DNA from: an uncultured Candidatus Saccharibacteria bacterium
GTDB lineage: Bacteria; Patescibacteriota; Minisyncoccia; Phycocordibacterales; PALSA-1337
DNA: 61,347 nucleotides
Assembly (NCBI GenBank): GCA_964646515.1
Contig: CAZYES010000002.1
Coordinates: 1 to 61,347, forward strand
Direction of reading: 5' to 3'
The notes beneath the pieces were generated by a model. That model had not been told where the DNA came from, searched no databases, and saw nothing but the letters and a program-made list of their open reading frames with translations. Position numbers and translations under genes: made by a program. This document shows, piece by piece, positions 15,460-45,982 of this stretch (its first letter is position 1; each line of letters starts with the position of its first letter).

Positions 15460-15532
15460 GCGCGATTAGCTCAGTTGGTAGAGCAGTGCTTTTACACAGC
15501 AAAGGTCGGGGGTTCGAATCCCTCATCGCGCA
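15460..15532 (+). tRNA. tRNA-Val (anticodon TAC)
   Basis: GCGCGAT TA GCTC-AGTTGGTA-GAGC A GTGCT TTTACAC AGCAA AGGTC GGGGG TTCGAAT CCCTC ATCGCGC A. Confidence 0.9.
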
Positions 15533-15780
15533 CATTTGATCTGTACCCCCTAGTGAGTTTGTAAGCAACAGCAAGTCGCCTACGCGACTTGCGCGAGGGA
15601 TTCGAACAGCGAGCGATCTCCGAGCCAGCGGGCGAGGAGCGCGAGCTGGTGCCCAGGAAATGTGAGCGGGTAGCGAACATTTCCGAGGGCGAATCCTCGA
15701 TCGCGCACTGCTTCGCTCGCTATCGCGGGCTACGCAGTGCAAGCACCAGTCCTGCGTAGCTTTAGCGGAGCAGGACTAAT
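15533..15780 (+). repeat. GC-rich module V, 3' of tRNA-Val, containing a degenerate second copy of the tRNA 3' end
   Basis: GAATCCTCGATCGCGCAC (15691-15708) compares with the tRNA's GAATCCCTCATCGCGCAC (15516-15533), 175 nt upstream. An inverted T-arm copy TGCGCGAGGGATTCGAAC lies at 15590-15607. Hairpins lie at 15571-15592, 15704-15740 and 15748-15777. Confidence 0.7.
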
Positions 15781-21066: not shown

Positions 21067-21075
21067 TGCTATAAT
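21067..21075 (+). promoter_or_regulatory. extended -10 box TGcTATAAT, 8 nt upstream of the pilB-like ATG
   Basis: The sequence cttgcTATAATaatgtgcaATG is read directly. Confidence 0.5.
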
Positions 21076-25621: not shown

Positions 25622-25630
25622 TGCTATAAT
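25622..25630 (+). promoter_or_regulatory. extended -10 box TGcTATAAT, 10 nt upstream of the PBP1A ATG at 25641
   Basis: The sequence ttctgcTATAATaagattcgtcATG is read directly. It lies inside the GTG-extended track ORF. Confidence 0.45.
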
Positions 25631-31154: not shown

Positions 31155-31202
31155 AATTTGCAAATTTACTCTGATAGTATATACCTGTTTATAAATATGC
31201 AA

Positions 31203-31287: not shown

Positions 31288-31422
31288 ATGTCATTTACGT
31301 ATAATCCCAAAAAAAGGAAACGAGCGAAGTCTCATGGATTTCGTGTACGCATGAAAACAACTAGTGGCCGCAAAGTTCTTGCCCGTAGACGTCACAAGAA
31401 GCGTGCCAGGATAGCGGTTTAG
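31288..31422 (+). CDS. rpmH: 50S ribosomal protein L34
   Basis: Below the ORF-track size cut-off. Translation [44 protein letters not shown] is a canonical L34. Classic rpmH-rnpA-yidC synteny. Confidence 0.9.
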
Positions 31423-31518: not shown

Positions 31519-31854
31519 ATGTTGCCACGACAAAAAAGACTACAGACCAGACAATTCAACGAGGTGATGGCAAAAGGGAAAGTTAGCCACTCGCTTTTTT
31601 TCTTGTTGCGTACGTTGATTGTTGGTAAACCGACTAGGGTTTCGGTGGTGGTACCACAGAAGATTGGCAAAACAGCGGTCATCCGCAACAAGCTACGACG
31701 TAAAGTGTATGAGGCTGTTCGACCATTATTTTCTTTGGTTGCTCCCGATGTTTATATTATTATTTTTGCAAAAAGTTCTGCACTATCAGCGTCATTTGCT
31801 GAACTCCAAAGAGAAATAAGAGTCGCCTTTGTAAAAGCGGGAGTTTTGAAGTAG
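31519..31854 (+). CDS. rnpA: RNase P protein component
   Basis: 111-aa basic protein containing KIGKTAVIRNKLRRKVYEA (the RNR motif region). Synteny supports the call. Confidence 0.85.
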   Translation: MLPRQKRLQTRQFNEVMAKGKVSHSLFFLLRTLIVGKPTRVSVVVPQKIGKTAVIRNKLRRKVYEAVRPLFSLVAPDVYIIIFAKSSALSASFAELQREIRVAFVKAGVLK

Positions 31855-32647: not shown

Positions 32648-34054
32648 TTATTTGGAGGAAACCAGATCCAACGACCACAGTGACAGGTCGTTTTTGTTCA
32701 TGAAGTACAAATAATTGTCTTTTGGGTCTAGGCCCAGATTGAAAGCGTCTATGACACGATCACTTTCGTCCAAGATAGATGAAATCAGGTGTATCTCCCC
32801 AGTTAGAACGTTGATTTGCCAGATTTTGTCTGCGAAAGAGACCTTGCCCATTGCCCAATCGTCAGGATAGGTAGCATTTGTTAGTTGCGAAGGAGTAGCG
32901 CAGTAAACTATTTCTTTATAAAAATTTCCCCAAGCACATTTGTCGGCCAAAGTTCTTACCACCGCATCTGTTATAGTGGCGTCTGCTATCGAGTATATGT
33001 TTGTTTGGAGTTTTTTGTCGCTATTGACCGATGAAACGATGGCGAACTTGGCATCATGGCTGACCTTGGCGCTGAGTCCCAGCATTGGTCCAGCAACTTT
33101 TTTCCATGTACCGGTTTTCATATTTATTAGGTACAGGAAGCCACTTTGACTGGCAGATCCTTTGGTGATTATAGCTATGGTGTTGTCTTCTGGCCAATCT
33201 ACGTTGATTTGAGTCATTGGCGTGTCGAATATCTTGGTTATCGATTTACCATCGAACGTGGCAGTGTATCCTACTCCTACCCCGCTTTCGTTGACCACCA
33301 TGAGAACCTTGTCTTTCTTGGGAGATGTGGCATAGGAAATTACGCGGTCTGATAGATTGTTTCCTTTGAGCGTGAAGGGTGTTAGCGGTAGTTTTGAATT
33401 GTTGGAAACAGTAGTTGAGGTGGCATTATATGTGCTTGTTGCTACTTTTGTATTTGATGCTGTCTGGGTTTTTAGTTCTGCATATAGTGTTGTGGCCCAC
33501 GATGAATCGTCATCGAGCATTGAACCGACAAATATCGTTAGGTTTTTGTTCCAAACGCTGTCGTATATTTTGGGCAATACGGTATTGGATAATGTTGTTA
33601 TGGCCAATGAATCATCTCTAGCCTCATAGATATTTCCTCTTCCCCGATCGACCCACCTGACCACGGCTACGTCTCTTGATGTTGTCTGTGGCTTGGTTAA
33701 TTTTTTTGTGGTCGTACCGGTTGAGCTTGTGGCTACAACAGGGGTTATGATAACGGTCGTGCTGGCGCCGTATCCGCCGACGGGCGTATTACTGAGCAAT
33801 CTCAATATAGGTATTTTTGTGGCCACGCTCGTCGTAGTTGAAATGTTGTTGCCATTATTGTTGGTGCCGGTGTTAGTGGGCAGGTTGCCACCTGTGGCTG
33901 GTCTGTTTAGTGGCTCAAATCCGTTCGTTGGTTCATTTGTCACTGGCTCGGTGCTAGTTTTTGTTGTGCGTGCAAAAAAATACCAGTAACCACCCGCAAC
34001 CAAGACAAGAATGGCGATCAACATGACAATAATTTTCCAAGTGGGCTTATTCAT
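32648..34054 (-). CDS. N-terminally anchored, Thr/Asn-rich linker plus beta-propeller-like protein (last gene of the T4SS-like operon)
   Basis: TM anchor KIIVMLIAILVLVAGGYWYFF. A low-complexity T/N linker, then a beta-rich region. Confidence 0.5.
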   Translation of the reverse strand: MNKPTWKIIVMLIAILVLVAGGYWYFFARTTKTSTEPVTNEPTNGFEPLNRPATGGNLPTNTGTNNNGNNISTTTSVATKIPILRLLSNTPVGGYGASTTVIITPVVATSSTGTTTKKLTKPQTTSRDVAVVRWVDRGRGNIYEARDDSLAITTLSNTVLPKIYDSVWNKNLTIFVGSMLDDDSSWATTLYAELKTQTASNTKVATSTYNATSTTVSNNSKLPLTPFTLKGNNLSDRVISYATSPKKDKVLMVVNESGVGVGYTATFDGKSITKIFDTPMTQINVDWPEDNTIAIITKGSASQSGFLYLINMKTGTWKKVAGPMLGLSAKVSHDAKFAIVSSVNSDKKLQTNIYSIADATITDAVVRTLADKCAWGNFYKEIVYCATPSQLTNATYPDDWAMGKVSFADKIWQINVLTGEIHLISSILDESDRVIDAFNLGLDPKDNYLYFMNKNDLSLWSLDLVSSK

Positions 34055-34067
34055 AGGTAATATTTTG

Positions 34068-35288
34068 TTATGGTGCTTTTACATCTTGTATACCTTTTGT
34101 TATTTCATTGGCGTATGTTGTTAACTCATTATATTTTTCTTGTGGCAGTTTATTTCTTGATGCATACAAAATGTCTGCCACATTACCCGCAGCCGCGTTC
34201 TTGGCGCCTTCTTGGCCGGATGGCGACCTGAAGGCGCTGGCTACTCGTTGTATATTTCCTAATAATGGTGTTGTTGCCACGATGATATGAGTCGTGTCTT
34301 CGATAACACCTCCCCAAAAAGTTGGGTCATTTGCTCTCCTGACTGCGGCCAATTGGGCCAGCATGGCCAGTTTGGTTTGTGTAAAGTTTGACTCAATTTC
34401 TAATTGTTTTACTTTTTCTGTTTGTCCCAGTGCTGTCAATTGTTCTTTGTAGGTTTCTTCTGTATCTCTGCACGCTTGTATCGCTTGATTTATGGTGTCC
34501 ACTGTTTGCACAGCCGTGTCGGTACTGATCATCTGGTTATCGATTGACTGGGTGCTGTAAATTAGGTATTGTTCGCCTCGACTTTCATTTATTTGCGCTA
34601 TTATTTCTTGAGCTTCAGGGTCTGTGGACGTGTCGACTTCATAGCCATTAGATTCTCTATATGACTGTTTGTATTGTTCTAGCTCATCTTCTAATACCTC
34701 GATTTCCTCATCGATTTCTTCTATTCTTGTTACAGCACCTTGGTTGGTTTGTCTTATTTGTTCTCTTTCTCTTTCAGCTATATTGTCAAAAAAAATTGTA
34801 GATGAATTGGTCCTACAGCCCGGATCTGTTATTTTTTTATTGCGGTCGCTCGGACAAGTCAGCTCTATATCGGGCACTAAAGTTTTTGGTATTTCTACCA
34901 GACGCGGATTGATGGTTCTTAGTATGATATAGGAGCACAATACCAAAAGGAGACCAAGTAAAGCATTTTGGATTTTCTTTTTGCCGTCGGTTTTTACTCC
35001 GGGGATAGAGCTTGTCATATATTGGAAGCCCCCCAAAACAATCATGAATACGGCAGCTACAGCAGCCAGGGCGACAAGTAAGTTGAAGGCATACTTGATA
35101 TATTCTTCGACAGTTACTGTCTCTTCCATTGACATACTGCCGTCTTTTTCGATCTGTGGCAAAGGTGCAAGCATGGTATATGTTTGAGGCTCTGTGGCCA
35201 TTGATATGCTTGGCAAGATAAATAAAAAGAGCAAGATTACTAGTAAAAACTTTTGGCCTTGGTTTGTCTTGTTTGAATTTATTTTCAT
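34068..35288 (-). CDS. T4SS-pilin-like (TrbC/VirB2-type) N-terminal domain protein with a long coiled-coil C-terminus
   Basis: Signal sequence, then two hydrophobic helices FNLLVALAAVAAVFMIVLGGFQYMTS and ALLGLLLVLCSYIILRTINP, the layout of T4SS pilins. The C-terminal 250 aa are acidic and helical. Confidence 0.5.
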   Translation of the reverse strand: MKINSNKTNQGQKFLLVILLFLFILPSISMATEPQTYTMLAPLPQIEKDGSMSMEETVTVEEYIKYAFNLLVALAAVAAVFMIVLGGFQYMTSSIPGVKTDGKKKIQNALLGLLLVLCSYIILRTINPRLVEIPKTLVPDIELTCPSDRNKKITDPGCRTNSSTIFFDNIAEREREQIRQTNQGAVTRIEEIDEEIEVLEDELEQYKQSYRESNGYEVDTSTDPEAQEIIAQINESRGEQYLIYSTQSIDNQMISTDTAVQTVDTINQAIQACRDTEETYKEQLTALGQTEKVKQLEIESNFTQTKLAMLAQLAAVRRANDPTFWGGVIEDTTHIIVATTPLLGNIQRVASAFRSPSGQEGAKNAAAGNVADILYASRNKLPQEKYNELTTYANEITKGIQDVKAP

Positions 35289-35297
35289 GAATATATT

Positions 35298-36335
35298 TTA
35301 AAAGGTTACTGTTGTGTTTTGCGGACTTGAATCGGTGTCTTTGAATACTACCGAGAAGCCAGCTTGGGCGTTCTGCAAGATTTGCTTGTTATTTCTGACA
35401 GACAGTTGGATATTTGAAGAACCAGTTAAGCCGTCAGGCGCGCGCAGTACCACCGACTCGTTCATGGTAAGTTCTGGGTGTCTCACGTTGTTGATTAGCC
35501 AAGTCAATACAAGATCGCCGTTACTATTATTTGGCTTGTTAAAACCAAAAGGTACCATGAGTACACTCGTTTCTTTTTCCGATCCTATATTGACGGAGTT
35601 ACCAATAGATTTGTTAAAAAGCGGTCCATACAATGGATCATCTACGTAAAAACCGATCAACGGCGCCACGAAGCTTATGGTAACTGTTCCTATCGCTTGT
35701 GAGCTGTTATCTCTTGGTGAGACGGTAACAGATATAGATGAAGCCTGAGGAACGATCTCACCAGTCAAAATGATTGACTGTTTGCCATAACCAGACAGGT
35801 TTTCTATGGCTTGTCCGTTTCTTTTCCACTTGTAGACGAGAGTTTCCGGATCGTATTCTACTCCAGACGAGTCGGCAATATGTGGGATAGCTATGATTTT
35901 ATAACTATTTTGGTATACAACGGGCATTTTCCCTCTGAACATTGGTGGCACATAACCATCTGTCTCAACGATTAGGTCCACTGAGCCAGAGCCTATTGTG
36001 ATTGAATTTGTTAGATTAGTCCCACCTGTAGTTATCGCCGTGGCTATGATCTTTAATTTTTGACCAAGTTGCGGTGCTTTTACTTCCAGTTTTGTGATAC
36101 CAACATCATTTTGTACGGTTTCTCCGTTTACGGACCAGGTAATTTTTGCCGAATCAATGTTGGCACTGTAACTTCTTGCTGTGATAGTGACCATTTGTCC
36201 TGGAGACGGATTGTTTGGAGAAGCAGAAAGAACTAACCCACTAGTTGCCAAAGGCGCTATCTGTGCATGTGCCGTCGAGATAGAGAATATAATATAGAGG
36301 ACAATTAATGAGACACAACGTTTCATTGCAGTCAT
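35298..36335 (-). CDS. secreted beta-rich (Ig-like repeat) protein
   Basis: Start placed at the ATG giving MTAMKRCVSLIVLYIIFSISTAHA, a signal peptide. The track ORF extends 20 codons further upstream. Confidence 0.5.
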   Translation of the reverse strand: MTAMKRCVSLIVLYIIFSISTAHAQIAPLATSGLVLSASPNNPSPGQMVTITARSYSANIDSAKITWSVNGETVQNDVGITKLEVKAPQLGQKLKIIATAITTGGTNLTNSITIGSGSVDLIVETDGYVPPMFRGKMPVVYQNSYKIIAIPHIADSSGVEYDPETLVYKWKRNGQAIENLSGYGKQSIILTGEIVPQASSISVTVSPRDNSSQAIGTVTISFVAPLIGFYVDDPLYGPLFNKSIGNSVNIGSEKETSVLMVPFGFNKPNNSNGDLVLTWLINNVRHPELTMNESVVLRAPDGLTGSSNIQLSVRNNKQILQNAQAGFSVVFKDTDSSPQNTTVTF

Positions 36336-36401
36336 TTTATCAATAAACACGGATAATTGCGATTGTAGCTGTGTACGATGTGCTTTTTGAGTCATATAAA
36401 T

Positions 36402-36830
36402 TTAATTTTGTGGGGCACGGACGCCGTCGACATTGGCTGGTTGCATGGCTTGTGCTGGCAATCTGATACCATCCTGATTGAGTGGGCGAGACGCATGACC
36501 GTTCATGGCAGATATGGTTTTTGACATACCTAGCTTGTCTTCGGTTCTGACCATGACTATTACGATGATGATACCGGCCAGAGTCATAGGAAAGGCCTGG
36601 ATTGCGGGGATCATCTCGGCTATTGTTGATATAGCTCCTGTGGCCAATCTTTTTGCGTTTACGAAACCACAGCCAATTTTCCAGAGATATACGCTGGCGC
36701 ACACCCAGAATACTGGCCCAGAAATGTCCCCAACAAATGGTATCAAACTAAGGAGATCGGCCAATACTGCAAAAGAAATGAAGAAGACCATTCCGATTAT
36801 CCCTATACGATATTTGGTTTGTCCTTCCAT
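36402..36830 (-). CDS. small polytopic membrane protein
   Basis: 142 aa with 3-4 TM segments and a soluble tail. Confidence 0.5.
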   Translation of the reverse strand: MEGQTKYRIGIIGMVFFISFAVLADLLSLIPFVGDISGPVFWVCASVYLWKIGCGFVNAKRLATGAISTIAEMIPAIQAFPMTLAGIIIVIVMVRTEDKLGMSKTISAMNGHASRPLNQDGIRLPAQAMQPANVDGVRAPQN

Positions 36831-36873
36831 GGTGACCTAATTATAGCAGAACTTATTTGTTTGTAGGTTTTAT

Positions 36874-38688
36874 CTATTGACCTGACGCTTCTAGTTCCCT
36901 CTTTGCTTGTTGTATCTGCATTATTTGCGCGGGGTTGGTGGTGATGATCTGGTCTTCCGTGTATGAGGCAACGATTTTCATGGCCACGTGTTTCAATCCT
37001 ACGAAGAACATCCCTTCGCCAACGTCAGATTCTAGGAGTAAATATTTTTCTTCGTCGGTTAGGTTGAAGGTTTTTTGTATGTGGTCTATAACTGATGGTG
37101 ATTGTTTCAAAAGAATTTGTATAGAAGAGTTGGTCACAATGGGCATGCCGTATGGGGAATTTAGAAAGTCGTCCACATCTTGCGTGATTGTCGCTAGACC
37201 AAGAAAATATTTACGTCCACGTTTGGCTAGGCTGAACAGGAACGAGGCGGTATCTTCAGATTTCATCATCCACCACGCTTCATCTATCACTAGTAGTCGT
37301 TTCTTTAGGTCCTTACGGACGGCATTCCATATATAGTGAGTCACGATGTACATTGCCACTGGTTTCAGTTCGTCCTCCATGTCTCTCAAGGAAAATACGG
37401 CAAATTTTTTGTTTATGTCCACATTTGAAGGACGATTGATGAATCCAGCCCAAGTTCCTTTGGTATACTTGGTCAATCTTTGTACCAATGAATCGGCGCC
37501 TTCCATTCCCGCAAGGACCATTTCAAAGTCTGAAAGTAATGGGGGTTCAACGCTTCGAAAATCTGATTCGGGGGTTATATCTTTGAGAGCGTAGGTCTCT
37601 GAAATAGCTCGGTCAATGATGGCGTCTTCTTCTTGTGTTAGACCTCCTAACATGATGCGGAATAATCCGACAAGGTTGATGATATTTGATCTCAGAACAT
37701 CAGAGGCTGACTCATCCTCTCGGGGTATTGGCAGATCAAATGGATTGATATGATGTTCGGAATTGAGAGAAATATTGAAATACTTCCCTCCCGTGGCTTC
37801 GGCCATGTATTCGTATTCTTTTTCTGGATCGATGACGATAACATCGGTGTCAAACATCAAAGTTCTCAGAATCTCAAGCTTTGTGCAATAAGATTTACCG
37901 GCGCCAGCAACGGCAAAAGTCACCGAATTGTAGTTTTCCAACAAAAAACGATCAAAAAGTACCAGAGAAGAATTGTGTCGATTGATACCATACAAAATGC
38001 CTTTGTCGGAGGTCAAATCGAAAGAAACGAATGGAAATAGCGATGAAAGTGGCGAAGAATTAAGCTTTGAATGTACAGCCAATTGGTCGTCCCCTATTGG
38101 AATAACGCTCTTGAACCCTTGTTCCTGTTGAAACAGTGCCGGTTTTACGTAGACGAGTTTTGATTCAAGAATGGATTTTATCTCTGATTCTAGTTTATCC
38201 AACTCGCCTTCGGAGTCTGCAAAAATAGTTATGTAGACGCCAACATCAAAGAGATGTTCTTGTGCCTGCATGAGCTGGTCACGCAAAGCTTCTAGATCTT
38301 GATAAGCGGTGTCTAATGCTGGGTCACGCACTAACCCCTTTTCTTCTCTTCTGGATATTTGGCTTTGCACTTCGGCTACTTTCTTTTGGAAATGACGCAA
38401 CACTTTGGCCGTGTCCACCGGATGTATGAAGATAGAGACATTAAAAACCTTGTCTAGATTAATAATTGGCGCGAACCAGCTTCCATCGAGAAAACGCGGA
38501 TATGAGATAACGAACAGGGTGCGTCCTACTTTTTCGCCCAGATTCAATTCCTTGGGACTTATTTTTAATGCCGATGGAGCAATAACATCTTTTAATTCCA
38601 ATACGCCAGCTTGGTATATCTCTTCAGGTAGGATAGAAACTATTGGGGATTCTTCTTTTTTGCCTAGTAATTTGTTGAATAGAGACAT
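36874..38688 (-). CDS. virB4: VirB4/TrbE-type T4SS ATPase (C-terminal ~3/4 of a Gram-positive-type VirB4)
   Basis: Walker A FAVAGAGKSY; Walker B LLVIDEAWWMM; LGLATITQD. The start codon lies 1 nt after the stop of the upstream ORF. Confidence 0.8.
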   Translation of the reverse strand: MSLFNKLLGKKEESPIVSILPEEIYQAGVLELKDVIAPSALKISPKELNLGEKVGRTLFVISYPRFLDGSWFAPIINLDKVFNVSIFIHPVDTAKVLRHFQKKVAEVQSQISRREEKGLVRDPALDTAYQDLEALRDQLMQAQEHLFDVGVYITIFADSEGELDKLESEIKSILESKLVYVKPALFQQEQGFKSVIPIGDDQLAVHSKLNSSPLSSLFPFVSFDLTSDKGILYGINRHNSSLVLFDRFLLENYNSVTFAVAGAGKSYCTKLEILRTLMFDTDVIVIDPEKEYEYMAEATGGKYFNISLNSEHHINPFDLPIPREDESASDVLRSNIINLVGLFRIMLGGLTQEEDAIIDRAISETYALKDITPESDFRSVEPPLLSDFEMVLAGMEGADSLVQRLTKYTKGTWAGFINRPSNVDINKKFAVFSLRDMEDELKPVAMYIVTHYIWNAVRKDLKKRLLVIDEAWWMMKSEDTASFLFSLAKRGRKYFLGLATITQDVDDFLNSPYGMPIVTNSSIQILLKQSPSVIDHIQKTFNLTDEEKYLLLESDVGEGMFFVGLKHVAMKIVASYTEDQIITTNPAQIMQIQQAKRELEASGQ

Positions 38689-38689
38689 G

Positions 38690-39331
38690 TTAGGTTATTT
38701 GGATGGGTTTTTCTGTTTCGCCCGGGTTGAATAATTTATAATATAACTCCACTACTTCTTCTGTCCCCAACTCTGCTACACGAACACCGCATCTTACCAA
38801 GCCCTGTTCGACGACGGTGACGCGTTGTTCCAACTGGCTTCGATATTCTTGGAATTGTTCATCGGCGCTCTCGGTTCGTGTTTTTCCTTTGTTTCTGCCT
38901 GGCATTATGTTGGAAATCGGGTTGTTACTACTGCTCATAATTGCCGGATCATATGGTATGACAACGAAGAAACTTTTTGACATGATGTTGGTGCTTTCTA
39001 CGAAAGCCTTGATGAATTCTATATATTCGCGAACTTGTATTTTCATTAACTCGGTTTGTTGCTCTTTGTAACGATCTTCGAGTAGCGCTATATATGGCCT
39101 GATGTCTAGTTTTTTTGATTGCACAAAAATTTGTATCGGGAAATCCAGGGAGTTTAAGAAATTTTGAAATTGAAAAAGAATAGAATTTTGCTCATCCTGT
39201 GATTTTAGGGCGAAATTCAATGATGAAGCCAAAATGATCGAACGCATGTTGCCATTTTTTAGGACGATTACGCCGTCGCGAATTTCTTGTATTGGCACAA
39301 AGTCTTGAGTTGTTTTTGATTTGTCAGCCAT
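38690..39331 (-). CDS. 213-aa protein resembling the N-terminal domain of Gram-positive VirB4 ATPases (possible split VirB4)
   Basis: TQDFVPIQEIRDGVIVLKNGNMRSIILASSLNFALKSQDEQNSILFQFQNFLNSLDFPIQIFVQSKKLDI...FFVVIPYD follows the pattern I recall for the N-termini of Tn916-Orf16/PrgJ-type ATPases. Not verified by alignment. Confidence 0.45.
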   Translation of the reverse strand: MADKSKTTQDFVPIQEIRDGVIVLKNGNMRSIILASSLNFALKSQDEQNSILFQFQNFLNSLDFPIQIFVQSKKLDIRPYIALLEDRYKEQQTELMKIQVREYIEFIKAFVESTNIMSKSFFVVIPYDPAIMSSSNNPISNIMPGRNKGKTRTESADEQFQEYRSQLEQRVTVVEQGLVRCGVRVAELGTEEVVELYYKLFNPGETEKPIQIT

Positions 39332-39333
39332 TT

Positions 39334-39768
39334 TTATTTTTGGTTTTTGTTAGAATATATACTCTCTTTAATATCCAAACTCCAAGTCAAATCTTTGAGT
39401 TTACTATTGGAAATTTTTGGAACGGTTATGGAAGCATAATTTTTGGCATCCTTGATTGAGCTTTGCACGTCTTTGGGTTGTGGTTTTTGGGTCTTTTCCC
39501 AGATGTAAAGTTTGTTGCCGATGAAATACTTGAACCCGTATTCTACTACATTTATGAGTGGTTTATTATTTATTTTGTAAAATGCCAAAGCGCCTGATAT
39601 GCCTATAATAACCACTATAGGGATGGCCGATAGCCACAAACTGCCCAAAAGTACATATACCAAAAACGATAGACCACCTCCGCCAGCCAGGTATATAAAC
39701 TGTTTCAGTGTAAGCGGTCCGAAGATTTTGTCTTCTATTTCTATGAATTGAGGTACTTGGAAACGCAT
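39334..39768 (-). CDS. PrgI/VirB3-like two-TM protein
   Basis: MRFQVPQFIEIEDKIFGPLTLKQFIYLAGGG followed by two TM helices, the PrgI-family signature. Confidence 0.6.
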   Translation of the reverse strand: MRFQVPQFIEIEDKIFGPLTLKQFIYLAGGGGLSFLVYVLLGSLWLSAIPIVVIIGISGALAFYKINNKPLINVVEYGFKYFIGNKLYIWEKTQKPQPKDVQSSIKDAKNYASITVPKISNSKLKDLTWSLDIKESIYSNKNQK

Positions 39769-39822
39769 TGCTTGTATTATAGCTTATTTGTTCTGGAACA
39801 GCGAAAGTATTTTTGGTAATGA

Positions 39823-40536
39823 TCACTCTATGGGTTCCCTATATGGGTCTGGACCGGTTCTTTTTGCTGGTATAGCTTGAGCCGGTCTCTCATTTTGTGT
39901 GGGGTTTACTGTTTTTGCTGGACCATCTGGTATCTGTTTCGTGGGCACATTTTCTGGCGCTGGCGCTCCGACATTATAGGTTGTTTTTTCTTCTACTTGT
40001 GCTCTACCACCTTCTAGTAATTGGTCGATCAATGGCTCGGTGAATGTTTCACTACTTTCTTTCTGTACAACGGTTTCTTTGCTCGGTGTGGGATTTTCTA
40101 TGTCTGAAATGATTTTTTCTTTATCTGCTGGGGTTACGCCGTTATTGCCATTTTCAGTTTCTTTTTTTTCTTGTTCGACCGTGAAATTGCCAACAGTCTC
40201 TAGATTTGAAATTGTTTGTGCCTCGTATTCTTGTATTTGTGCTTGCATTTCCTTCTTTATAGTTTGGAATACATCTTCGTTTACCATTTTTGCTATTTTT
40301 TCGGCGGTATCTCTGTCGATTTCGAGTCGTTTTACTATGTTCGTGACGAAATCTTTTGATTGGCTCTGTCCCGTAATGGTGTCGCCTATCTCGGCATCGA
40401 GTTCCCCTATCTGGTCTATGTGTAGGCCAAATTGATTTCCTATTTTTTCACAGGCATCGTATATCATCGGCGATTGAGCCAACTTGATCATGTCCTCGTT
40501 TTTTGTTTTTGTTGTGTCCATTTTTTTATTAGTCAA
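39823..40536 (-). CDS. hypothetical acidic soluble protein
   Basis: 237 aa, rich in E/T/Q. No recognisable motif. Confidence 0.45.
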   Translation of the reverse strand: MTNKKMDTTKTKNEDMIKLAQSPMIYDACEKIGNQFGLHIDQIGELDAEIGDTITGQSQSKDFVTNIVKRLEIDRDTAEKIAKMVNEDVFQTIKKEMQAQIQEYEAQTISNLETVGNFTVEQEKKETENGNNGVTPADKEKIISDIENPTPSKETVVQKESSETFTEPLIDQLLEGGRAQVEEKTTYNVGAPAPENVPTKQIPDGPAKTVNPTQNERPAQAIPAKRTGPDPYREPIE

Positions 40537-40592
40537 CTGTATTAGTATATTTATCGAATACTTTTTTCATTGGCTAGTTCTTCTCCGTTAAA

Positions 40593-42569
40593 TTATGTCC
40601 AGCTATCAATGTTACGGTTGATATATCCAGCTGCTGCATGTTTTCGTCCTGCTCTAGGGCCAGTGGTACTTGTTATTTGATTTAGGACCTTATTGGCGAT
40701 CAGGGTTTTTGTCCCTTGGTCTAGGCCATTTTTGTCCAAATAATCTAGTTGTCCAGCATTCAGGAATGGGACGAAATAAGCACCCGATACCATGCCAGGA
40801 TTTTTTGTGGCGATTTTTAGTAAATCTGGACCATTAAGGTTTTTTACCATGTTTTCTATACTTGAAGTGTTGCCACTCGTCACGGCGTCGTTCACTGACA
40901 GATTCAGGGCCTTTTCTCTGTTATCCATTACTGATTTCTTGTCTGCGTCAGAAATATCTTCCGATTTCATTATGGCTTCGAAGTCATCTTTTCCTAACCG
41001 CTTTATTACTTCAATGTTTTTGAGGTTATCGGCTCCCAGTGCAAGTCTTTCTTTTGTATTCATTTTGCCGATGATATTTTCTACGGTTATTATCTCACCA
41101 GTCTTTGGATCTTTTCTAATTACTGGTGGCGCTCCCGGTTTGATGTCTTTCAGTGCGATACCAAGTTGATCTCTGCGATCAAATTCAGCCTTTTTGCTTT
41201 CTGCCACCTTTTTTTCTTTTGAGTATTCCTCGGCAGATCTCTTTGTGCCGAATTTCTTTTTAGCCAGAGCTCCCGTTGTAGCACCTCTAATATCTTTTCC
41301 GAGTACAGTATCTCCGAAGAATCTTGAGTTTGATAACTTTTTGTCCAACGACATGGCCCCTGCTCCTATGGTGCCTCTGGCAAGCACTCCGCCAGCTGTT
41401 GTGGCTGTCCCAACAGTCGCTGATTTTGCCAAACCTCCTGCTCTACTCCACATTGCTCCGGCGCCGATCTTACCACCGAGTTTGTTCAAGTATTGGTTCG
41501 CTATACCTTCTCCACCAGCGCCAAGCTTGAGTGCGGCCAGCAATGGCAAGTTGAGCATTATTATTACAAAAACGCAGTTAGCGATGAGACCGAAGAAACT
41601 GAAGTAGAAATTGGTATTAGCTACACCCAAGCTTTCAGTGAAATTGGTACCGTTTACGACCTGTAGAGCCATATACATGAGAAGCAGATATGCCGGCATG
41701 AATATCAGTTGCCCGGATAGCAGTTTCCAACCTTTGTTAGCGTATTCTTTGAGTTGGGGTATTATATATGCCGCAAACCAGATCGGTGAGAATCCAAGTA
41801 GAAAGACCAAAATAGCCAGTCGTATGATAAAAGCCAGAGACGCAAATAGAAAACTTAGACCAGCTGTTATCATCATCCCTGCTCCAGCAAAACTGACGAT
41901 GGCTATACGTATCCAGTTTGGTAATCTATCCCCAGTATTGGCGGTCATATTTTCAATACCTTCACTTTTATATAACTGAGTGAGATTTAATGAATTCATA
42001 AAGACATCGGATATACTGCCTTTGACCATAGATTCTTGTGCCAACGAAGTAATTGGCACGTCTTTGATTGGTAATACATTGGGGGTTAGTTGTTTGAACA
42101 ATTGTACAGAGACTATGTTGGAGGCATCTATCAAGACGCTGACGATGAAAAAACTGAAGTTTATTAGAACCCCAGCGATAATTATGTTTTTCATTATTTC
42201 GCCGAATCCCGGTCTTTTTAGGTCCAATATCATCTGAAAGGCCATGAACAACAAAGAGAATATGATGAACATGCCTGTTATGTCTCGTATTGATCTCCAA
42301 ACAACATATATGGCGGGTGTGCTATCCACGAAATCTTTTATCTGTATGGTGATATTGATAGACATGTTCAATATCAGTCCACATATGCTTAGAAAAGCAG
42401 AGGCAAGTGTTAGGACAAAGTATCCCAATCTATTAAAAATCGCTTCCGCAATGCTATCTCCAAGACTAGCATTAGCAATATGCGCAGGTATGCTTATCAT
42501 GTAAATGATCAGGATCGATATTATGATTAATGGCAGGTATTTCTTCATTTTTTGTTGGTAGCGCGACAT
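40593..42569 (-). CDS. VirB6/TrbL-like polytopic membrane protein with a Gly-rich linker and a soluble C-terminal domain
   Basis: At least 6 TM helices in the first 370 aa, then GAGGEGIANQYLNKLGGKIGAGAMW..., then a 250-aa charged domain. Its position next to PrgI/VirB4 is as in Gram-positive T4SS loci. Confidence 0.55.
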   Translation of the reverse strand: MSRYQQKMKKYLPLIIISILIIYMISIPAHIANASLGDSIAEAIFNRLGYFVLTLASAFLSICGLILNMSINITIQIKDFVDSTPAIYVVWRSIRDITGMFIIFSLLFMAFQMILDLKRPGFGEIMKNIIIAGVLINFSFFIVSVLIDASNIVSVQLFKQLTPNVLPIKDVPITSLAQESMVKGSISDVFMNSLNLTQLYKSEGIENMTANTGDRLPNWIRIAIVSFAGAGMMITAGLSFLFASLAFIIRLAILVFLLGFSPIWFAAYIIPQLKEYANKGWKLLSGQLIFMPAYLLLMYMALQVVNGTNFTESLGVANTNFYFSFFGLIANCVFVIIMLNLPLLAALKLGAGGEGIANQYLNKLGGKIGAGAMWSRAGGLAKSATVGTATTAGGVLARGTIGAGAMSLDKKLSNSRFFGDTVLGKDIRGATTGALAKKKFGTKRSAEEYSKEKKVAESKKAEFDRRDQLGIALKDIKPGAPPVIRKDPKTGEIITVENIIGKMNTKERLALGADNLKNIEVIKRLGKDDFEAIMKSEDISDADKKSVMDNREKALNLSVNDAVTSGNTSSIENMVKNLNGPDLLKIATKNPGMVSGAYFVPFLNAGQLDYLDKNGLDQGTKTLIANKVLNQITSTTGPRAGRKHAAAGYINRNIDSWT

Positions 42570-42599
42570 GACACTATATTAACGTAACCAATCTTCTAT

Positions 42600-44165
42600 C
42601 TAAATCGTAGTGGTGCAGGCGGATAATAACTGACCATATTGTGTCTGCAACATTTCCAGTGTTGAGTTAACTGATTCTTGGTCGTTATTTGCATTGGTGA
42701 TATCATTTTCGGTTATTATGGTTCCAGACGAAAGCATATTGCCGTACCTCTTGCTCAACTGATCGATCAGTTTAGGATCATTTGTTCTAGATGCCTCAGT
42801 TTTTATTCCGTTGAGGGTATTCAAACTATTATTTGCCTGGTCGGCCTTGTTCTGATACTGCGCCTGAAGTGGTCCAATCTGTCCAGCCAAGATATTGTCT
42901 CTTTGACTTGACGGGCACAGAGACTCATAGAGGGCTTTCATATTGTTGATATCAGCCAGAGTCTTGTCTCTCAAAGCCTTGTATCTGTTAGCTATTGTTA
43001 TGTTCCCCTCGATATTATCCAATAGTTCTGTTTTGGTATTGTCCGCCGGTTTTGTGTTGGCCGTATCAGTTCTCAGGTTGTCAATTAGTGATTGTGTTTC
43101 GCCATAATTGTATTCTCCCTGGCTAGATGAATATAGTCCTTTCTGCAGGATATTTTTTACGAGTTGATTGAAGGCGGCACTGATGATTTCGTCTATTTCG
43201 TCTGCGGCAACCAAACTATCGTTCCCTGATGATAATTGGACATTTAGCGCAGATGATATGACCGAGCCAGGAGTTTCTGTGTGGCATATCTGATATGTAA
43301 CGTTTCCATCGCTACCCATTTTCGGAGTGATTTCTGGATTGTTCAAAGCGGAATAGTCTTCTGAATTTTCTGGGTCTATATTTTCACATACTTTGTAAGA
43401 CATAAATCCACCACCTCGGTTTAGATCGTTATTGATGGCAGTTTGTGCCTTTTCTATTTCGTTTTGTAGGTCCGCGTCCGCCAGGAGTTTTGCTCCTATC
43501 CAGTTATTTTGTTGTTCAGTAGTCATGGCAATGAAAGCTGGCCAACCACCCTGCGAAAAGTCTCCACCCATAAAAGCGTCGATACCGCCTGAACCAGCCT
43601 GGACACCTGCAACAGTTGACCCGTTAACAGAGACTCCGGCACTAGCACGGGCATTTCTCACATTTTCGATGATGGTGTCCAAAGTACAAGCATATCTCTG
43701 TTGTCTGGCCGGTAAACTTTCTTGAGCCCTTAGCGCTATATCCAAACGGAGGTTGAGATTGAATGGAGAACAGAGGTCTTGCAGAATCCCATTGTTTGCG
43801 ATAAAGGCTCCAGTTAACTGATTGGCAGAGTCTAGGAAAAATGATTGTGGGTGAGTCAAAAATGCTGGACTGCCGTTGAAACCACTGTTAATCCAATCTA
43901 TTACATCTGCTGTTACTGACTGTAACAATTGTTTTGCCAATGCCCAAGCCAAAGGATCTAAGACCGTTTCCTTGAGTTTCATATACGTGTCGTGAACAAC
44001 TTGAAGTATTGATTGGATTGAAGTTATTTTGTTTACTGAAGTGTTTGCGGCATCAAATACAGGGTAGACCGCTTGCGTTTGTTTGGGCACAGACATACTT
44101 ATGATGGCCAGTATCAATCCGATGATGACGAGCTGTTTTGCGATTGAGTGTTTTTGATTTTTCAT
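42600..44165 (-). CDS. secreted/anchored protein of unknown function
   Basis: N-terminal anchor or signal IAKQLVIIGLILAIISMSVPKQTQA; 521 aa. Confidence 0.45.
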   Translation of the reverse strand: MKNQKHSIAKQLVIIGLILAIISMSVPKQTQAVYPVFDAANTSVNKITSIQSILQVVHDTYMKLKETVLDPLAWALAKQLLQSVTADVIDWINSGFNGSPAFLTHPQSFFLDSANQLTGAFIANNGILQDLCSPFNLNLRLDIALRAQESLPARQQRYACTLDTIIENVRNARASAGVSVNGSTVAGVQAGSGGIDAFMGGDFSQGGWPAFIAMTTEQQNNWIGAKLLADADLQNEIEKAQTAINNDLNRGGGFMSYKVCENIDPENSEDYSALNNPEITPKMGSDGNVTYQICHTETPGSVISSALNVQLSSGNDSLVAADEIDEIISAAFNQLVKNILQKGLYSSSQGEYNYGETQSLIDNLRTDTANTKPADNTKTELLDNIEGNITIANRYKALRDKTLADINNMKALYESLCPSSQRDNILAGQIGPLQAQYQNKADQANNSLNTLNGIKTEASRTNDPKLIDQLSKRYGNMLSSGTIITENDITNANNDQESVNSTLEMLQTQYGQLLSACTTTI

Positions 44166-44167
44166 TG

Positions 44168-45058
44168 TTATTGATTAAAGATTGAACCGCCTTCAAAATC
44201 ATTGTAGGTGATATTGGCTGAGGCTAAGGCCATTTTTATAGAAAGTATATTTTGTGTGATAAGACCGTATGCAGTCTCGTACGTTTCCAGGGCATTTATG
44301 GCTTGCATAGGATCTGTTTCTTGTTTTTGAAATGAAATGTTCACATATATCATATTACTGATTCCATTTATTAGACCGATATGATAGGTTGCCAAGTCGG
44401 TCGGTACAGGAATTTTTAATAATCCAGCCAGTATCGCGCGGTATTTTTTCTCATTTCCAGCCAGTTCCTCTACATATTTCGGATTTTTTTTCTGCATGCC
44501 TTCCAAAGCCAAGGATGCGTCCTCTTGCGTTGGGGCGTATGTCTTTATTAGTGTTCCGATACTATTGCCATATTGACGAAGCGCGGTAATGTCATTATTG
44601 CGGTTAGTTTTGATGTCGCCCGTTGTGTATGTTTTTGGTTTATCTTGTCCAGAATAATCTTGTGCCAAAAGACTAGCTATTGTACTACTTACGACACTTG
44701 AGTCATTATTTAAACCGATTTGTTTGAGGTTGATGTACTGTGTGAACAGGTCTCTGCCAAATAATTGGGTGGCAGTGAGATTTTCTTCTGTTTTTATGGT
44801 TTTGTCAGATGTGGGCGTAGATTTGAGGACGTTATTGCTGGGATTACCTTGTAAAAATGACTTTTGCCAATCTGTACTAGTACTTGTCGTGGTGTTTTTA
44901 TTGTTTTGTGTCTCTGTCGATATGAGAGGGGCTTCTTGATCTTTTTGTTTTTGTTTTGTCGACGTATTTCCAAACGCATAAATAGCCGTAGCCACTACTG
45001 CTAAGAGGCAGACGATAAATATTAGCATGGTCTGTTTTTGCGGGTGAAACGTGGCCAT
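44168..45058 (-). CDS. N-terminally anchored protein of unknown function (first gene of the operon)
   Basis: TM MLIFIVCLLAVVATAIYAF; a T/N/K-rich linker; a helical domain. Confidence 0.45.
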   Translation of the reverse strand: MATFHPQKQTMLIFIVCLLAVVATAIYAFGNTSTKQKQKDQEAPLISTETQNNKNTTTSTSTDWQKSFLQGNPSNNVLKSTPTSDKTIKTEENLTATQLFGRDLFTQYINLKQIGLNNDSSVVSSTIASLLAQDYSGQDKPKTYTTGDIKTNRNNDITALRQYGNSIGTLIKTYAPTQEDASLALEGMQKKNPKYVEELAGNEKKYRAILAGLLKIPVPTDLATYHIGLINGISNMIYVNISFQKQETDPMQAINALETYETAYGLITQNILSIKMALASANITYNDFEGGSIFNQ

Positions 45059-45105
45059 AAAACTGCAACAAGTATAGCAGATTATGGTCAGTTATGGGAT
45101 AAAAG

Positions 45106-45942
45106 TTATACACATTTTGCAATTTCTAGCCATTTTTCTAGTGATATATCCTCTGGTCTGCTTTTTGGGTCCAAATTTAACCTTAACCAATGGGCTTCTA
45201 ACTTTTTTCTATCGGCGATGATTTCGAGATTTCTGATAGCGTACTTGCGTTTATGTGCGAATCCTGATTTGACGACCGCGAAGAATTTTTTTATTTCCAT
45301 ATGGTTGTCAACGAATATTTTGTCGCTTATGTCGGCGATAGAAAGAATGGCAGAATCAACATTTGGCGGTGGCGTAAATGCTCCTTTCGGTACGTTTTTA
45401 ATGATTTTTGGTGTGCCAAATGCTTTGACTGATATAGATAGCACGCTTTCTTTTTTGTCGCGGGCCACGATACGATCGGCGACTTCCTTTTGGACAAGCA
45501 GAATCATTCTGGTGGGCCTCGGTTTGTTTTCTAGGAATTTTTCCAAAATAGCGCCAGTAATATAGTAAGGAATATTTGCGACAACAGCGTACTTAGAATC
45601 AATTATCTTGAATGATTGTTCGATAGATTCTGACTTATCGTCTGATGTTATTTTGTCGCTCAGTATATCGCCAGGTATCAGTTCTAGCTGTTTTGTATTT
45701 ATTTCCCTAAAGAATTTTTCTTTTAGTAGCTCGCATATTTCCCGGTCTTTTTCTATGGCCAGAACTTTCGCTCCACTTTCGAGTAGCGCTGTAGTCAAAA
45801 CGCCAGTACCAGGGCCAATTTCTAGTATCAACTCGCCCCTTTTGACGTTAGCCGCTGAAATGATTTGACCAAGAACGATTCTTGAATTTAAGAAATGTTG
45901 CCCCAACGTTTTTTTCGCTTTTATTTTGATTTTTTGTGGCAT
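45106..45942 (-). CDS. rsmA: 16S rRNA (adenine1518/1519-N6)-dimethyltransferase RsmA/KsgA
   Basis: LGQHFL, the SAM motif ILEIGPGTGVLT, and NIPYYIT. Confidence 0.9.
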   Translation of the reverse strand: MPQKIKIKAKKTLGQHFLNSRIVLGQIISAANVKRGELILEIGPGTGVLTTALLESGAKVLAIEKDREICELLKEKFFREINTKQLELIPGDILSDKITSDDKSESIEQSFKIIDSKYAVVANIPYYITGAILEKFLENKPRPTRMILLVQKEVADRIVARDKKESVLSISVKAFGTPKIIKNVPKGAFTPPPNVDSAILSIADISDKIFVDNHMEIKKFFAVVKSGFAHKRKYAIRNLEIIADRKKLEAHWLRLNLDPKSRPEDISLEKWLEIAKCV

Positions 45943-45982
45943 GAAGTTATTTTTTGTCGCGGGTTATCTCACGAGCCAGTGG

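Follow-up and report, generated by a model that had tools for sequence, protein, structure and literature searches.

A type IV secretion-like gene cluster beside dnaA in an ultra-small Paceibacteria bacterium and its probable role in host interaction

Layout and surroundings of the cluster

The genome of an ultra-small Paceibacteria (CPR) bacterium contains a cluster of eleven minus-strand ORFs beside dnaA (32648-45058), numbered here p1 to p11 from the 5' end and separated by gaps of 2, 30, 56, 54, 2, 1, 43, 6, 9 and 13 nt, in that order. Independent gene calling on public contigs with the same VirB4 returned the same eleven genes, and only the call for p4 differed (232 aa from an ATG start, compared with 237 aa). 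The set of co-directional ORFs and gaps given in an earlier, sequence-only reading of this DNA is identical to that in the ORF list and agrees with these gene calls. Family searches identified the flanking genes as yidC (60KD_IMP, 1.4e-35) and rsmA/ksgA (RrnaAD, 8.7e-50), in line with the core-gene flanks proposed earlier (yidC on one side and rsmA-pcrA on the other), and the remaining flank genes code for a UvrD/PcrA helicase, DnaA, DnaN, RnpA (31519-31854) and RpmH (31288-31422). [quoted passage not shown]

The cumulative GC-skew has its minimum at about 28-30 kb, which is consistent with an origin near dnaA and with the previous placement of the cluster beside oriC. DnaA boxes, scored with the E. 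coli consensus, were not enriched in the window, that is, the whole 61-kb stretch of DNA that was analysed (17 found versus 17 expected). The G+C content of the cluster is the same as that of its flanks, with no compositional anomaly. The gene for PNPase, pnp, is located 8 kb from the cluster (53032-55173), and an integrated element of 5.5 kb, which is situated 19 kb away and encodes a rolling-circle Rep together with a serine recombinase, indicates that mobilisable DNA is present in this genome.

An extended -10-like motif, TGCTATACT (45071..45079, minus strand), is placed 12 nt upstream of the p1 ATG and is a candidate promoter by consensus match, as well as a candidate marker of the 5' boundary of the cluster; 24/39 related loci have an extended -10 before p1. 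Consensus matches also identify two candidate internal promoters on the minus strand. One is a TATAAT (39776..39781) that precedes the p5 ATG by 7 nt, and 32/72 related loci have a TATAAT in the 30 nt before p5. The other is the extended -10-like motif TGCTATAAT (36840..36848), 9 nt before the p8 ATG. The pattern TGCTATAMT occurs five times in the window, compared with 0.99 expected. Instead of the single operon suggested earlier, the motifs before p1, p5 and p8 suggest that there are at least three transcription units.

Components of the secretion system

The p7 protein (604 aa; 36874..38688) represents the C-terminal two thirds of a VirB4-type ATPase. It contains intact Walker A (AGAGKSY) and Walker B (LLVIDEAWWMM) motifs, scores above the curated cut-off of the NCBIfam family conju_CD1110 (1.3e-110, 370.8 bits, cut-off 325) and matches Pfam P-loop_TraG (4.8e-26), which bears out its first identification. 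Its sequence is 77-93% identical across the best 80 genomes. The adjacent p6 (213 aa; 38690..39331), a TrsD/TraD-like protein of the 'TraC-like' family PF26593, matches NCBIfam VirB4_plasma (4.3e-12, profile positions 99-233) and TrsD (3.8e-8), and is collinear with residues 20-197 of an unsplit VirB4 of 797 aa (BLASTP, E 1e-8). By these alignments, p6 is identified as the TrsD-like, detached N-terminal domain of VirB4, and the split into proteins of 210-216 aa and 600-640 aa is retained in nearly all related loci.

The p5 protein (144 aa; 39334..39768) belongs to the PrgI family (VirB3-like; PF12666, E 1.2e-9, 39 bits, cut-off 27) and contains two TM segments within residues 23-67, as had been recognised from its sequence. 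The p3 protein (658 aa; 40593..42569) is a polytopic membrane protein by hydropathy, with about six to seven hydrophobic segments up to residue 353, a Gly-rich linker and a hydrophilic C-terminal domain of about 250 aa. While p3 itself gave no family match in Pfam or NCBIfam, its earlier interpretation as a VirB6/TrbL-like protein draws indirect support, solely through its orthologues, of which 6/46 match Pfam TrbL PF04610 (best 6e-5) and others match the Gram-positive VirB6-type NCBIfam families CD3337/EF1877 (5), pLS20_p028 (2) and Mbov_0396 (1). Furthermore, p3 is located upstream of PrgI and VirB4, as is VirB6 in pCDC3875 of C. botulinum.

The p10 protein (406 aa; 34068..35288) consists of a VirB2-type T4SS pilin module, with a signal peptide, two TM helices and a conserved YTxLAPLP...TINPxLV motif, followed by an acidic, helical and E/Q-rich extension of about 275 aa. 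The pilin domain, previously described as VirB2/TrbC-like, exceeds the cut-off of Pfam T4SS_pilin PF18895 (31.8 bits, cut-off 26.6, residues 60-125), whereas the coiled coil to which it was said to be fused is a putative feature of the extension, suggested by its composition and by spurious matches to coiled-coil families. In the alignment of orthologues, conservation is confined to the pilin module, and the variable extension accounts for ORF lengths of about 140 to 615 aa. In some relatives the extension weakly resembles a LAS/Hedgehog-type zinc peptidase (E 0.0026 and 0.03), so that their pilin might display a cell-wall hydrolase; this resemblance does not apply to p10 itself. A canonical VirB2 filament may not be able to accommodate an extension of about 275 aa on each of its subunits.

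Of the remaining six proteins, p1, p2, p9 and p11 are predicted to be exposed outside the membrane. The p1 protein (296 aa; 44168..45058), predicted to be extracytoplasmic, contains an N-terminal TM helix (residues 7-33), which a Thr/Asn/Lys-rich linker joins to a C-terminal domain of about 190 aa. No match to p1 was obtained in Pfam, NCBIfam or PDB-profile searches; bacterial TSP3 repeats are present in the linker of 10/41 orthologues. It was detected by BLAST in 41 related loci, with a median identity of 27%, and most other long loci contain a similar-sized ORF at this position. The p2 protein (521 aa; 42600..44165), secreted or anchored, has an N-domain with an invariant W-I-N-x-G...G-x-P motif and invariant cysteines in the alignment, and a C-terminal helical bundle. 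In its AF2 model (mean pLDDT 67), residues 370-520 score above 90 and the N-domain is modelled poorly; a comparison of the model with PDB gave no fold match at E<=1e-3. The p2 family is large (5,825 representatives of 50%-identity clusters found with a profile), and six orthologues match DUF4141 at residues 15-57 with 24-32 bits, two of which exceed the cut-off of 30.

The poorly conserved p4 (39823..40536), which lacks a TM segment, is acidic (pI 4.7) as stated earlier, and nearly all related loci have an ORF of 160-600 aa in its place. The small membrane protein p8 (142 aa; 36402..36830) has about three TM segments, with an ORF of 110-260 aa at its position in most related loci. The p9 protein (365 aa; 35298..36395) is secreted and beta-rich, with a signal or anchor segment at residues 21-49, and probably contains tandem Ig-like domains. 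The earlier label of an Ig-like protein thus holds in a weak form, since the Ig-type matches of its orthologues (Ig_3 in five, BiPBP_C in four, TIG, Big_2 and PKD) are not individually significant, nor is the PDB profile match to Hoc by itself (E 0.005). In the p11 protein (468 aa; 32648..34054), an N-terminal TM anchor and a disordered Thr/Asn-rich linker precede a domain that is modelled confidently (AF2 mean pLDDT 84.5, pTM 0.77) as a TolB-like beta-propeller, in agreement with its first description. Foldseek gave 901 PDB matches at E<=1e-3, including TolB 7mx5 (E 8.6e-10), tricorn protease and WD40-type propellers, and the p11 alignment shows invariant cysteines. The median identities of p1, p2, p3, p9 and p11 are low, 27-31%.

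The sequence-only reading counted four recognisable parts and seven without a nameable motif. With p6 as the VirB4 N-domain there are at least five recognisable parts, while p1, p2, p4 and p8 remain unassigned after family searches, in keeping with its remark that most parts are uncharacterised. Conserved synteny is the sole basis for regarding p1, p2, p4, p8, p9 and p11 as parts of the machine rather than as merely co-located genes.

No VirD4/FtsK-like protein, relaxase or VirB11 was found in the window, for which ORF translations were read and selected ORFs scanned for families; its sole GspE-family ATPase is a PilB/MshE type IV pilus ATPase of 557 aa. The reported lack of these three components therefore holds within the window, but VirD4-like genes occur far from virB4 in most Patescibacteria genomes (PMC12102498), and transport independent of a coupling protein (T4CP) is only tentative because such a protein may be encoded elsewhere in the genome. 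Sequence searches of the cluster recognised no VirB8-like or VirB1-like protein.

Conservation and proposed role

The order pcrA-rsmA-[p1..p11]-yidC-dnaA-dnaN is kept in 41/41 related loci that span 20 kb or more and come from different Paceibacteria species, and all eleven ORFs are intact in many species. The median identity is 81% for VirB4, 63% for TrsD and 56% for PrgI (over 79 loci), compared with 60% for DnaA, 49% for DnaN and 48% for RsmA, so that VirB4 is more conserved than DnaA. The sequence-only reading had named absence or scattering of the cluster in relatives as evidence against it, and the order was instead fixed throughout. Together with the core-gene flanks and the absence of relaxase, T4CP and VirB11 in the window, this upholds its view of chromosomal machinery rather than a conjugative element: the cluster encodes core machinery that is inherited vertically and is not left over from a mobile element.

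We consider the cluster, with a probability of roughly 0.85, to be the Paceibacteria form of the Patescibacteria T4SS, which is non-conjugative and serves in host interaction. Its identity is supported by VirB4, PrgI and T4SS_pilin matches above cut-offs, by TrsD/VirB4-N homology and by VirB6-type matches of orthologues; the order VirB6, PrgI, VirB4 is also common to a Firmicutes conjugative plasmid and the Southlakia locus. A surface or host interface is supported by the TM and signal segments, the invariant cysteines of p2 and p11, the propeller fold and the 27-31% identities. The Patescibacteria T4SS descends from monoderm conjugation machinery of the MPF-FATA class. Here, its core in the cytoplasmic membrane comprises PrgI, an extended VirB6-like channel protein and VirB4, whose TrsD-like N-domain and ATPase body are separate proteins. 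In addition, the cluster encodes a single VirB2-type pilin, which carries a large extension at its C-terminus, and six proteins specific to the lineage. VirB4 may power the assembly of the translocon and of a pilin-based surface structure where the host cell is contacted, and the fast-evolving surface proteins may mediate contact with, or penetration of, the host envelope. Macromolecules would cross without a dedicated relaxase or cluster-encoded coupling protein, and hence not by a conjugation machine, in the service of episymbiosis by effector export, import of host material such as nucleic acids, or both.

Conjugation could still function through a coupling protein and a relaxase encoded elsewhere, given the distant VirD4-like genes of most Patescibacteria genomes and the mobilisable DNA 19 kb away. 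We regard this as improbable, since relaxases are almost absent from the phylum (103/3,035 genomes) and, in S. epibionticum, the VirD4-like gene was not found essential, unlike the T4SS genes (PMC12102498); moreover, a fixed position beside dnaA and a slower evolution than that of DnaA are not the pattern of an accessory transfer function. Less probable still is a decaying integrated conjugative element that has lost its relaxase, T4CP and integrase. The nearest non-CPR relatives of VirB4 are indeed found on conjugative plasmids of Firmicutes and Actinobacteria (33-36% identity), and VirB4 is divided between two ORFs, but the split is conserved and matches the TrsD/TrsE arrangement of pGO1-type systems. 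Along with the intact ORFs, the fixed synteny, the unremarkable composition and the high VirB4 identity across species, it effectively refutes decay.

The direction of transport is much less certain than the identity and role of the system. One tentative possibility is a DNA or RNA import machine like ComB of H. pylori or the archaeal Ced, drawing host nucleic acids into a nucleotide-auxotrophic cell. Import systems need neither relaxase nor T4CP, pnp is nearby, and p7 has a weak, partial match to the DNA-import ATPase CedB (E 1.5e-8), albeit at 33.7 bits against a cut-off of 700 and much weaker than that to conjugative VirB4. In Ca. Southlakia epibionticum, a Saccharibacterium, T4SS genes and pilins are essential and comEC is dispensable for viability (Wang et al. 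2023, PMC10633639), the T4SS has been proposed as a route of nucleotide acquisition (PMC11665869), and the cultivated strain OT8 shows tubular structures and uptake of host RNA (bioRxiv 10.64898/2026.06.21.733656). However, no domain for nucleic-acid binding and no nuclease domain was recognised among the proteins of the cluster, uptake through the T4SS is hypothetical, and import is a sub-case of the host-interaction T4SS rather than a true alternative to it. To a similarly limited degree, the system may export effector proteins into or onto the host, as do Ptl and Brucella VirB, which also lack a T4CP, or may simply build a pilus for adhesion. Protein-secreting T4SSs without T4CP exist (PMC12857230), a VirB2-type pilin is present and host-specific adhesion fits the fast-evolving surface proteins, but no effector candidates or secretion signals were identified, and the peptidase-like pilin extensions of relatives, which would also suit this reading, are weak assignments that do not cover p10. 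Within the host-interaction T4SS, we slightly favour acquisition from the host through a pilus or conduit.

Relation to known systems

The Patescibacteria T4SS was published between 2023 and 2025, and both its proximity to the origin and the absence of a relaxase and a coupling protein were known from that work. The present analysis thus rediscovers it and contributes a few further details. Quiñonero-Coronel et al. 2025 found its VirB4 clade in 2,407/3,035 genomes, near dnaA, dnaN and KsgA (PMC12102498), and a 2025 review also covers the system.

Gram-positive MPF-FATA systems (pCF10 Prg/Pcf, pGO1/pIP501 Trs/Tra, C. difficile CTn and C. botulinum pCDC3875) resemble the cluster in their CD1110-family VirB4, PrgI, TrsD-like and polytopic VirB6-like proteins and in having VirB4 downstream of VirB6 and PrgI. 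They differ in that the cluster lacks VirD4, relaxase, SLT/CHAP hydrolase and VirB8-like protein, contains a VirB2-type pilin, which they do not have, and is chromosomally fixed rather than carried on a plasmid or ICE; its VirB4 is just 33-36% identical to the plasmid proteins. ComB of H. pylori and Ced of Sulfolobales, for DNA uptake or import, and Ptl of Bordetella and VirB of Brucella, for protein export, are likewise VirB4-based, without a cluster-encoded coupling protein or relaxase, and repurposed from conjugation. However, these systems are diderm or archaeal, with other accessory sets and, for Ced, a marginal CedB similarity, and none is growth-essential or fixed at the origin.

The closest counterpart is the Southlakia locus SEML1_0006-0019 (PMC10633639). 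It differs in having six short pilins in an array, rather than a single pilin gene with a long C-terminal extension, a lysozyme-like gene, which the cluster lacks, and an NTF2/VirB8-like gene, of which none was recognised here; the families of p1 and p2, as well as p11 with its TolB-like propeller, are not mentioned in the parts of the published annotation that were consulted. Otherwise, both loci are chromosomal, without relaxase or T4CP, and adjoin dnaA, dnaN, KsgA, RnpA and RpmH (PMC10633639, PMC12102498), and they share the core order PrgI, TrsD-like protein and VirB4, an extended VirB6-like protein, a PF18895 VirB2-type pilin and an Ig-like exported protein downstream of VirB4.

Gene order and conservation of the T4SS cluster

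The T4SS-like cluster consists of eleven ORFs on the minus strand (32648-45058), here called p1 (44168-45058, the most upstream) to p11 (32648-34054, the last), which encode proteins of 296, 521, 658, 237, 144, 213, 604, 142, 365, 406 and 468 amino acids and are separated, from p1 to p11, by gaps of 2, 30, 56, 54, 2, 1, 43, 6, 9 and 13 nt. The same eleven genes are present in independent gene calls on public metagenome contigs that encode an identical VirB4. The flanks are core genes. To the left are yidC, rnpA and rpmH, all encoded on the plus strand, together with dnaA and dnaN, which share the minus strand of the cluster; to the right are rsmA/ksgA and then a UvrD/PcrA helicase. The sequence-only reading had described this arrangement as chromosomal machinery next to oriC; its observation is confirmed, and its interpretation is supported with corrections. 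Since rsmA and pcrA, with gaps of 47 and 40 nt, are co-directional with p1-p11, the co-directional run comprises 13 genes. The cumulative GC skew reaches its minimum at about 28-30 kb. A search of the window for the E. coli DnaA-box consensus showed no enrichment; the placement of oriC comes solely from gene content and GC skew. The run from pcrA to p11 (32648-47932) lies to the right of the skew minimum on the minus strand and is transcribed towards dnaA. It is thus head-on to a presumed rightward replication fork, which is unusual for a highly conserved and presumably highly expressed cluster close to the origin.

A scan of one genome per GTDB species gave at least 576 relatives of the VirB4 protein (p7). 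The best 80 of these all come from metagenome-assembled genomes of Patescibacteria and are 77-93% identical to p7; most are labelled as Paceibacteria/Parcubacteria-type or as Taylor-, Zambryski-, Nomura- or Campbellbacteria, and some records as “uncultured Saccharibacteria”. The best matches outside the CPR are from plasmids of Firmicutes and Actinobacteria, at 33-36% identity. With the identity of the best matches as a proxy, p7 may belong to a Patescibacteria-specific VirB4 clade nested in MPF-FATA. Each of the 41 loci that are 20 kb or longer has the order pcrA-rsmA-[p1..p11]-yidC-dnaA-dnaN, and at the positions of p1, p4 and p8, ORFs of similar size are present in most loci where BLAST fails. 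The median identity across the 80 related species is 81% for VirB4, 63% for the TrsD-like protein (p6) and 56% for PrgI (p5), compared, within these loci, with 60% for DnaA (29808-31202), 49% for DnaN, 48% for RsmA and 42% for YidC. PrgI and the TrsD-like protein are also within the housekeeping range. Only 27-31% identity is seen for p1, p2, p3, p9 and p11, which are membrane proteins or exposed at the envelope. In this cluster the core machinery evolves slowly and the surface parts evolve fast.

The conservation of VirB4 and the fixed synteny show that the cluster is clearly neither absent nor scattered in related genomes, as would be expected of the remnant of a recent mobile element. An integrative conjugative element was considered and rejected, since the cluster contains no recombinase, its position is the same in every one of the long loci and its G+C content equals that of its flanks.

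No Shine-Dalgarno sequences were found for the T4SS genes of the window. The extended -10 motif TGCTATAMT occurs five times in the window (45071-45079, 36840-36848, 21067-21075, 25622-25630 and 1702-1710) against 0.99 expected, typically preceding a start codon by 9-12 nt, as for p1, p8 and pilB, and a TATAAT is located upstream of p5. In the relatives, too, -10-like motifs of this kind are enriched at these positions. Judged from these candidate promoters, the cluster probably contains at least three transcription units. The short distance between motif and start codon, together with the lack of Shine-Dalgarno sequences, suggests that this organism may use leaderless mRNAs or mRNAs with very short leaders. 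When the cluster was scanned for consensus sequences of promoters and terminators, there was no enrichment over shuffled sequences, and the scan therefore says nothing on operon structure.

Core machinery and pilin

Genes for TrsD-like, PrgI/VirB3-like, VirB6-like and PF18895 VirB2-like pilin proteins adjoin virB4 in the cluster. The sequence-only reading had recognised four parts, of which the VirB4 ATPase, the PrgI/VirB3-like protein and the pilin hold by family match. The protein p7 (36874-38688) matches NCBIfam conju_CD1110 with 370.8 bits (cut-off 325) and the Pfam family P-loop_TraG with an E-value of 4.8e-26, and the Walker motifs read from its translation are intact. The protein p5 has two transmembrane segments and scores 39 bits against a PrgI cut-off of 27. 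The reading had left p6 among the unnamed proteins, and this is where it needs correction. The p6 protein has matches to the TrsD/TraD family, with a TrsD score of 33.4 bits that is below the NCBIfam cut-off of 200, and to VirB4 models in their N-terminal part, and it is collinear with residues 20-197 of the unsplit VirB4 of 797 amino acids from the C. botulinum plasmid pCDC3875 (BLASTP E-value 1e-8). By this alignment, p6 corresponds to the N-terminal domain of VirB4. That the two ORFs are a single gene broken by a frameshift artefact is ruled out, because a split into proteins of 210-216 and 600-640 amino acids is retained in nearly all related loci.

The fourth part, p3, has no family match at E<=1 in the window itself. 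Six of 46 orthologues match the Pfam family TrbL/VirB6 (PF04610; best E-value 6e-5), and eight of the orthologues match three Gram-positive NCBIfam membrane families of the VirB6 type. An hhalign comparison of the p3 family with a single VirB6 of the CD1112 family was not significant. The polytopic topology, the glycine-rich linker, the hydrophilic C-terminal domain and the gene position fit VirB6/TrbL, and p3 would fit the “extended VirB6” type.

The p10 protein contains a T4SS_pilin domain (PF18895) at residues 60-125 (31.8 bits, cut-off 26.6), and only this module, with the pattern YTxLAPLP...TINPxLV, is conserved. The ORFs of its orthologues span from about 140 to 615 amino acids because the C-terminal extension varies. 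The pilin of the window has a coiled-coil-like extension, which differs from that of Zambryskibacteria-like orthologues, where the C-terminal domain, about 150 amino acids long and rich in Cys, contains the motif H-x-G-x-x-D...HWH. This domain was located in six of the related loci (L037:13652-14101, L038:13527-13976, L044:13318-13767, L045:12679-13128, L060:13710-14159 and L078:13722-14171). One sequence shows a weak match to Peptidase_M15_4 (E-value 0.0026), and a profile of the extension matches only the Hedgehog N-domain, which has the LAS zinc-peptidase fold, also weakly (E-value 0.03). These matches hint that a cell-wall hydrolase may be fused to, or displayed on, the T4SS pilin in the Zambryskibacteria-like loci. 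An SLT domain suggested by reading the pilin extension of another related locus, L032, had no Pfam match and was dropped.

Accessory proteins and other genes of the window

The p11 protein is a membrane-anchored beta-propeller, with an AF2 model (pLDDT 84.5, pTM 0.77) that among PDB structures best matches TolB and other propellers, with E-values of about 1e-9. Several weak matches indicate that p9 is probably Ig-like. The p2 protein belongs to a large family (5,825 clusters at 50% identity) and has a conserved, Cys-containing N-domain and a C-terminal helical bundle. The AF2 model is confident for the bundle and poor for the N-domain. No hit reached E<=1e-3 in a Foldseek search with it, which retrieved generic helical bundles only. 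A relationship of p2 to VirB5 or to the DUF4141 transfer protein of Bacteroides, encoded between traG and traJ, was not adopted because the DUF4141 match covers only 40 N-terminal residues in some orthologues. Profiles built from orthologue alignments of p1, p2, p3, p9 and p11 gave noise or sub-threshold hints against all PDB sequences, Pfam scans of the p4 and p8 orthologues gave nothing, and neither by sequence nor by profile did p1, p2, p9 or p11 match PDB chains or VirB8-like (NTF2-fold) families, of which PrgL, TraM and TcpC are examples.

A further reading, which we regard as unlikely, is that the VirB2-type pilin of Paceibacteria is not a plain filament subunit but a conserved membrane or pilus module displaying a swappable C-terminal passenger, which together with the syntenic, fast-evolving surface proteins p1, p2, p9 and p11 would make up an extracellular module for host penetration that has not been described before and that stands in for the missing VirB1, VirB5 and VirB8. 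The passengers may be the coiled coil here and an LAS/Hedgehog-type zinc peptidase-like domain in the Zambryskibacteria-like relatives, with none in some genomes.

In agreement with the sequence-only reading, no VirD4/FtsK-like protein, relaxase or VirB11 was found among the translated ORFs of the 61-kb window, and the cluster contains no relaxase or oriT. For VirD4, this is valid for the window only, as VirD4-like genes are located far from virB4 in most genomes (PMC12102498). The sole HUH-type protein seen is a rolling-circle Rep (REP_ORF2-G2P) in a separate integrated element. The only ATPase of the GspE/T2SSE family (21084-22757; T2SSE E-value 3.7e-116) is identified by its length of 557 amino acids and its MshEN domain as a PilB/MshE-type type IV pilus ATPase rather than VirB11. 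Its gene and the T4SS cluster lie on opposite sides of the origin, about 10 kb apart, and hence both envelope machines reported to be essential in Saccharibacteria are origin-proximal here. No hydrolase domain, and thus none of a VirB1-like (SLT/CHAP) enzyme, was found in any of the eleven proteins. An M23-LysM peptidase is encoded 3 kb upstream of the cluster on the opposite strand (48180-49265), a position kept in some relatives only.

Two large secreted proteins of 722 and 607 amino acids (4794-6962 and 15795-17618) have N-terminal PG_binding_1 domains and linkers rich in Thr, Ser and Asn, with a PKD domain in one; they are candidate surface proteins for binding the cell wall of the host or their own. 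A listed ORF of 393 amino acids (14561-15742) runs across tRNA-Val (15460-15533, plus strand), and its N-terminal third is therefore an artefact; the real gene, as judged from the sequence, is a shorter RluA/RluD-like pseudouridine synthase.

The integrated element of about 5.5 kb (8200-13861) lies 19 kb from the cluster across the origin and is not part of it. It is bounded by a perfect direct repeat of 174 nt (8200-8373 and 13688-13861), whose first part duplicates the 3' end of tRNA-Leu(gag); the tRNA gene itself is located at 13856-13940 on the minus strand. Its cargo comprises two ORFs without family match (8418-9761, minus strand, and 10175-11017, plus strand), the rolling-circle Rep (11367-12191; PF23343 at 2.8e-21) and a large serine recombinase (12234-13814). 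The G+C content is 0.45-0.47 over roughly 10-16 kb, which overlaps the right half of the element, compared with about 0.41 elsewhere. To our knowledge, small integrative elements have been little described in CPR genomes.

Proposed function and comparison with published systems

The cluster is the T4SS already published for Patescibacteria. In a mechanism that builds on the observed gene content, conservation pattern, fixed chromosomal position and the fold of p11 in the AF2 model, PrgI, the split VirB4 and the extended VirB6 would form a membrane translocon, and a pilin-based structure would be assembled under the drive of VirB4. Surface proteins would contact or breach the host envelope, and cargo would pass without a relaxase. 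No T4SS before that of the Patescibacteria had been reported as essential for the growth of its owner, and through this system a large part of bacterial diversity may obtain resources from host cells. A 2025 FEMS review (PMC12857230) and a 2024 PNAS perspective (PMC11665869) state that its function is unknown, completely so in the latter, and speculate on roles in effector delivery or nucleotide import. A 2026 preprint on a cultivated member describes tubular structures, possibly T4SS pili, and uptake of host RNA (bioRxiv 10.64898/2026.06.21.733656). The window adds no new concept. It is a clean and complete example from Paceibacteria with three useful details, namely a VirB4 more conserved across species than DnaA, six accessory genes in fixed association with the core and a variable C-terminal domain of the pilin, which point to p2, p9, p10 and p11 as concrete targets. 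What remains of interest is the function of the whole T4SS class and the accessory proteins without an assignment, p1, p4 and p8 among them.

The Gram-positive conjugative T4SSs (MPF-FATA) feature a VirD4/TcpA-type coupling protein, unlike the ORF translations of the window, and a relaxase, an oriT and a VirB1-like SLT/CHAP hydrolase, unlike the cluster. Wang et al. 2023 (PMC10633639) describe a homologous locus at the chromosome start of “Ca. Southlakia epibionticum” (SEML1_0006-0019) that resembles these conjugative systems, is essential in co-culture, including its pilins, and has no recognisable coupling protein or relaxase. In that locus, PrgI, the TrsD-like protein and VirB4 are encoded in the same order as in the cluster, and an Ig-like exported protein is encoded downstream of VirB4. 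Quiñonero-Coronel et al. 2025 (PMC12102498) identified the VirB4 clade in 2,407 of 3,035 genomes with almost no relaxases, and with genes for TrsD, PrgI, VirB6 and PF18895 pilins adjoining virB4. In Paceibacteria, the commonest neighbours of virB4 in that study are DnaA, DnaN, KsgA, RnpA and RpmH, and this chromosomal context, with no relaxase nearby, is exactly that of the cluster.
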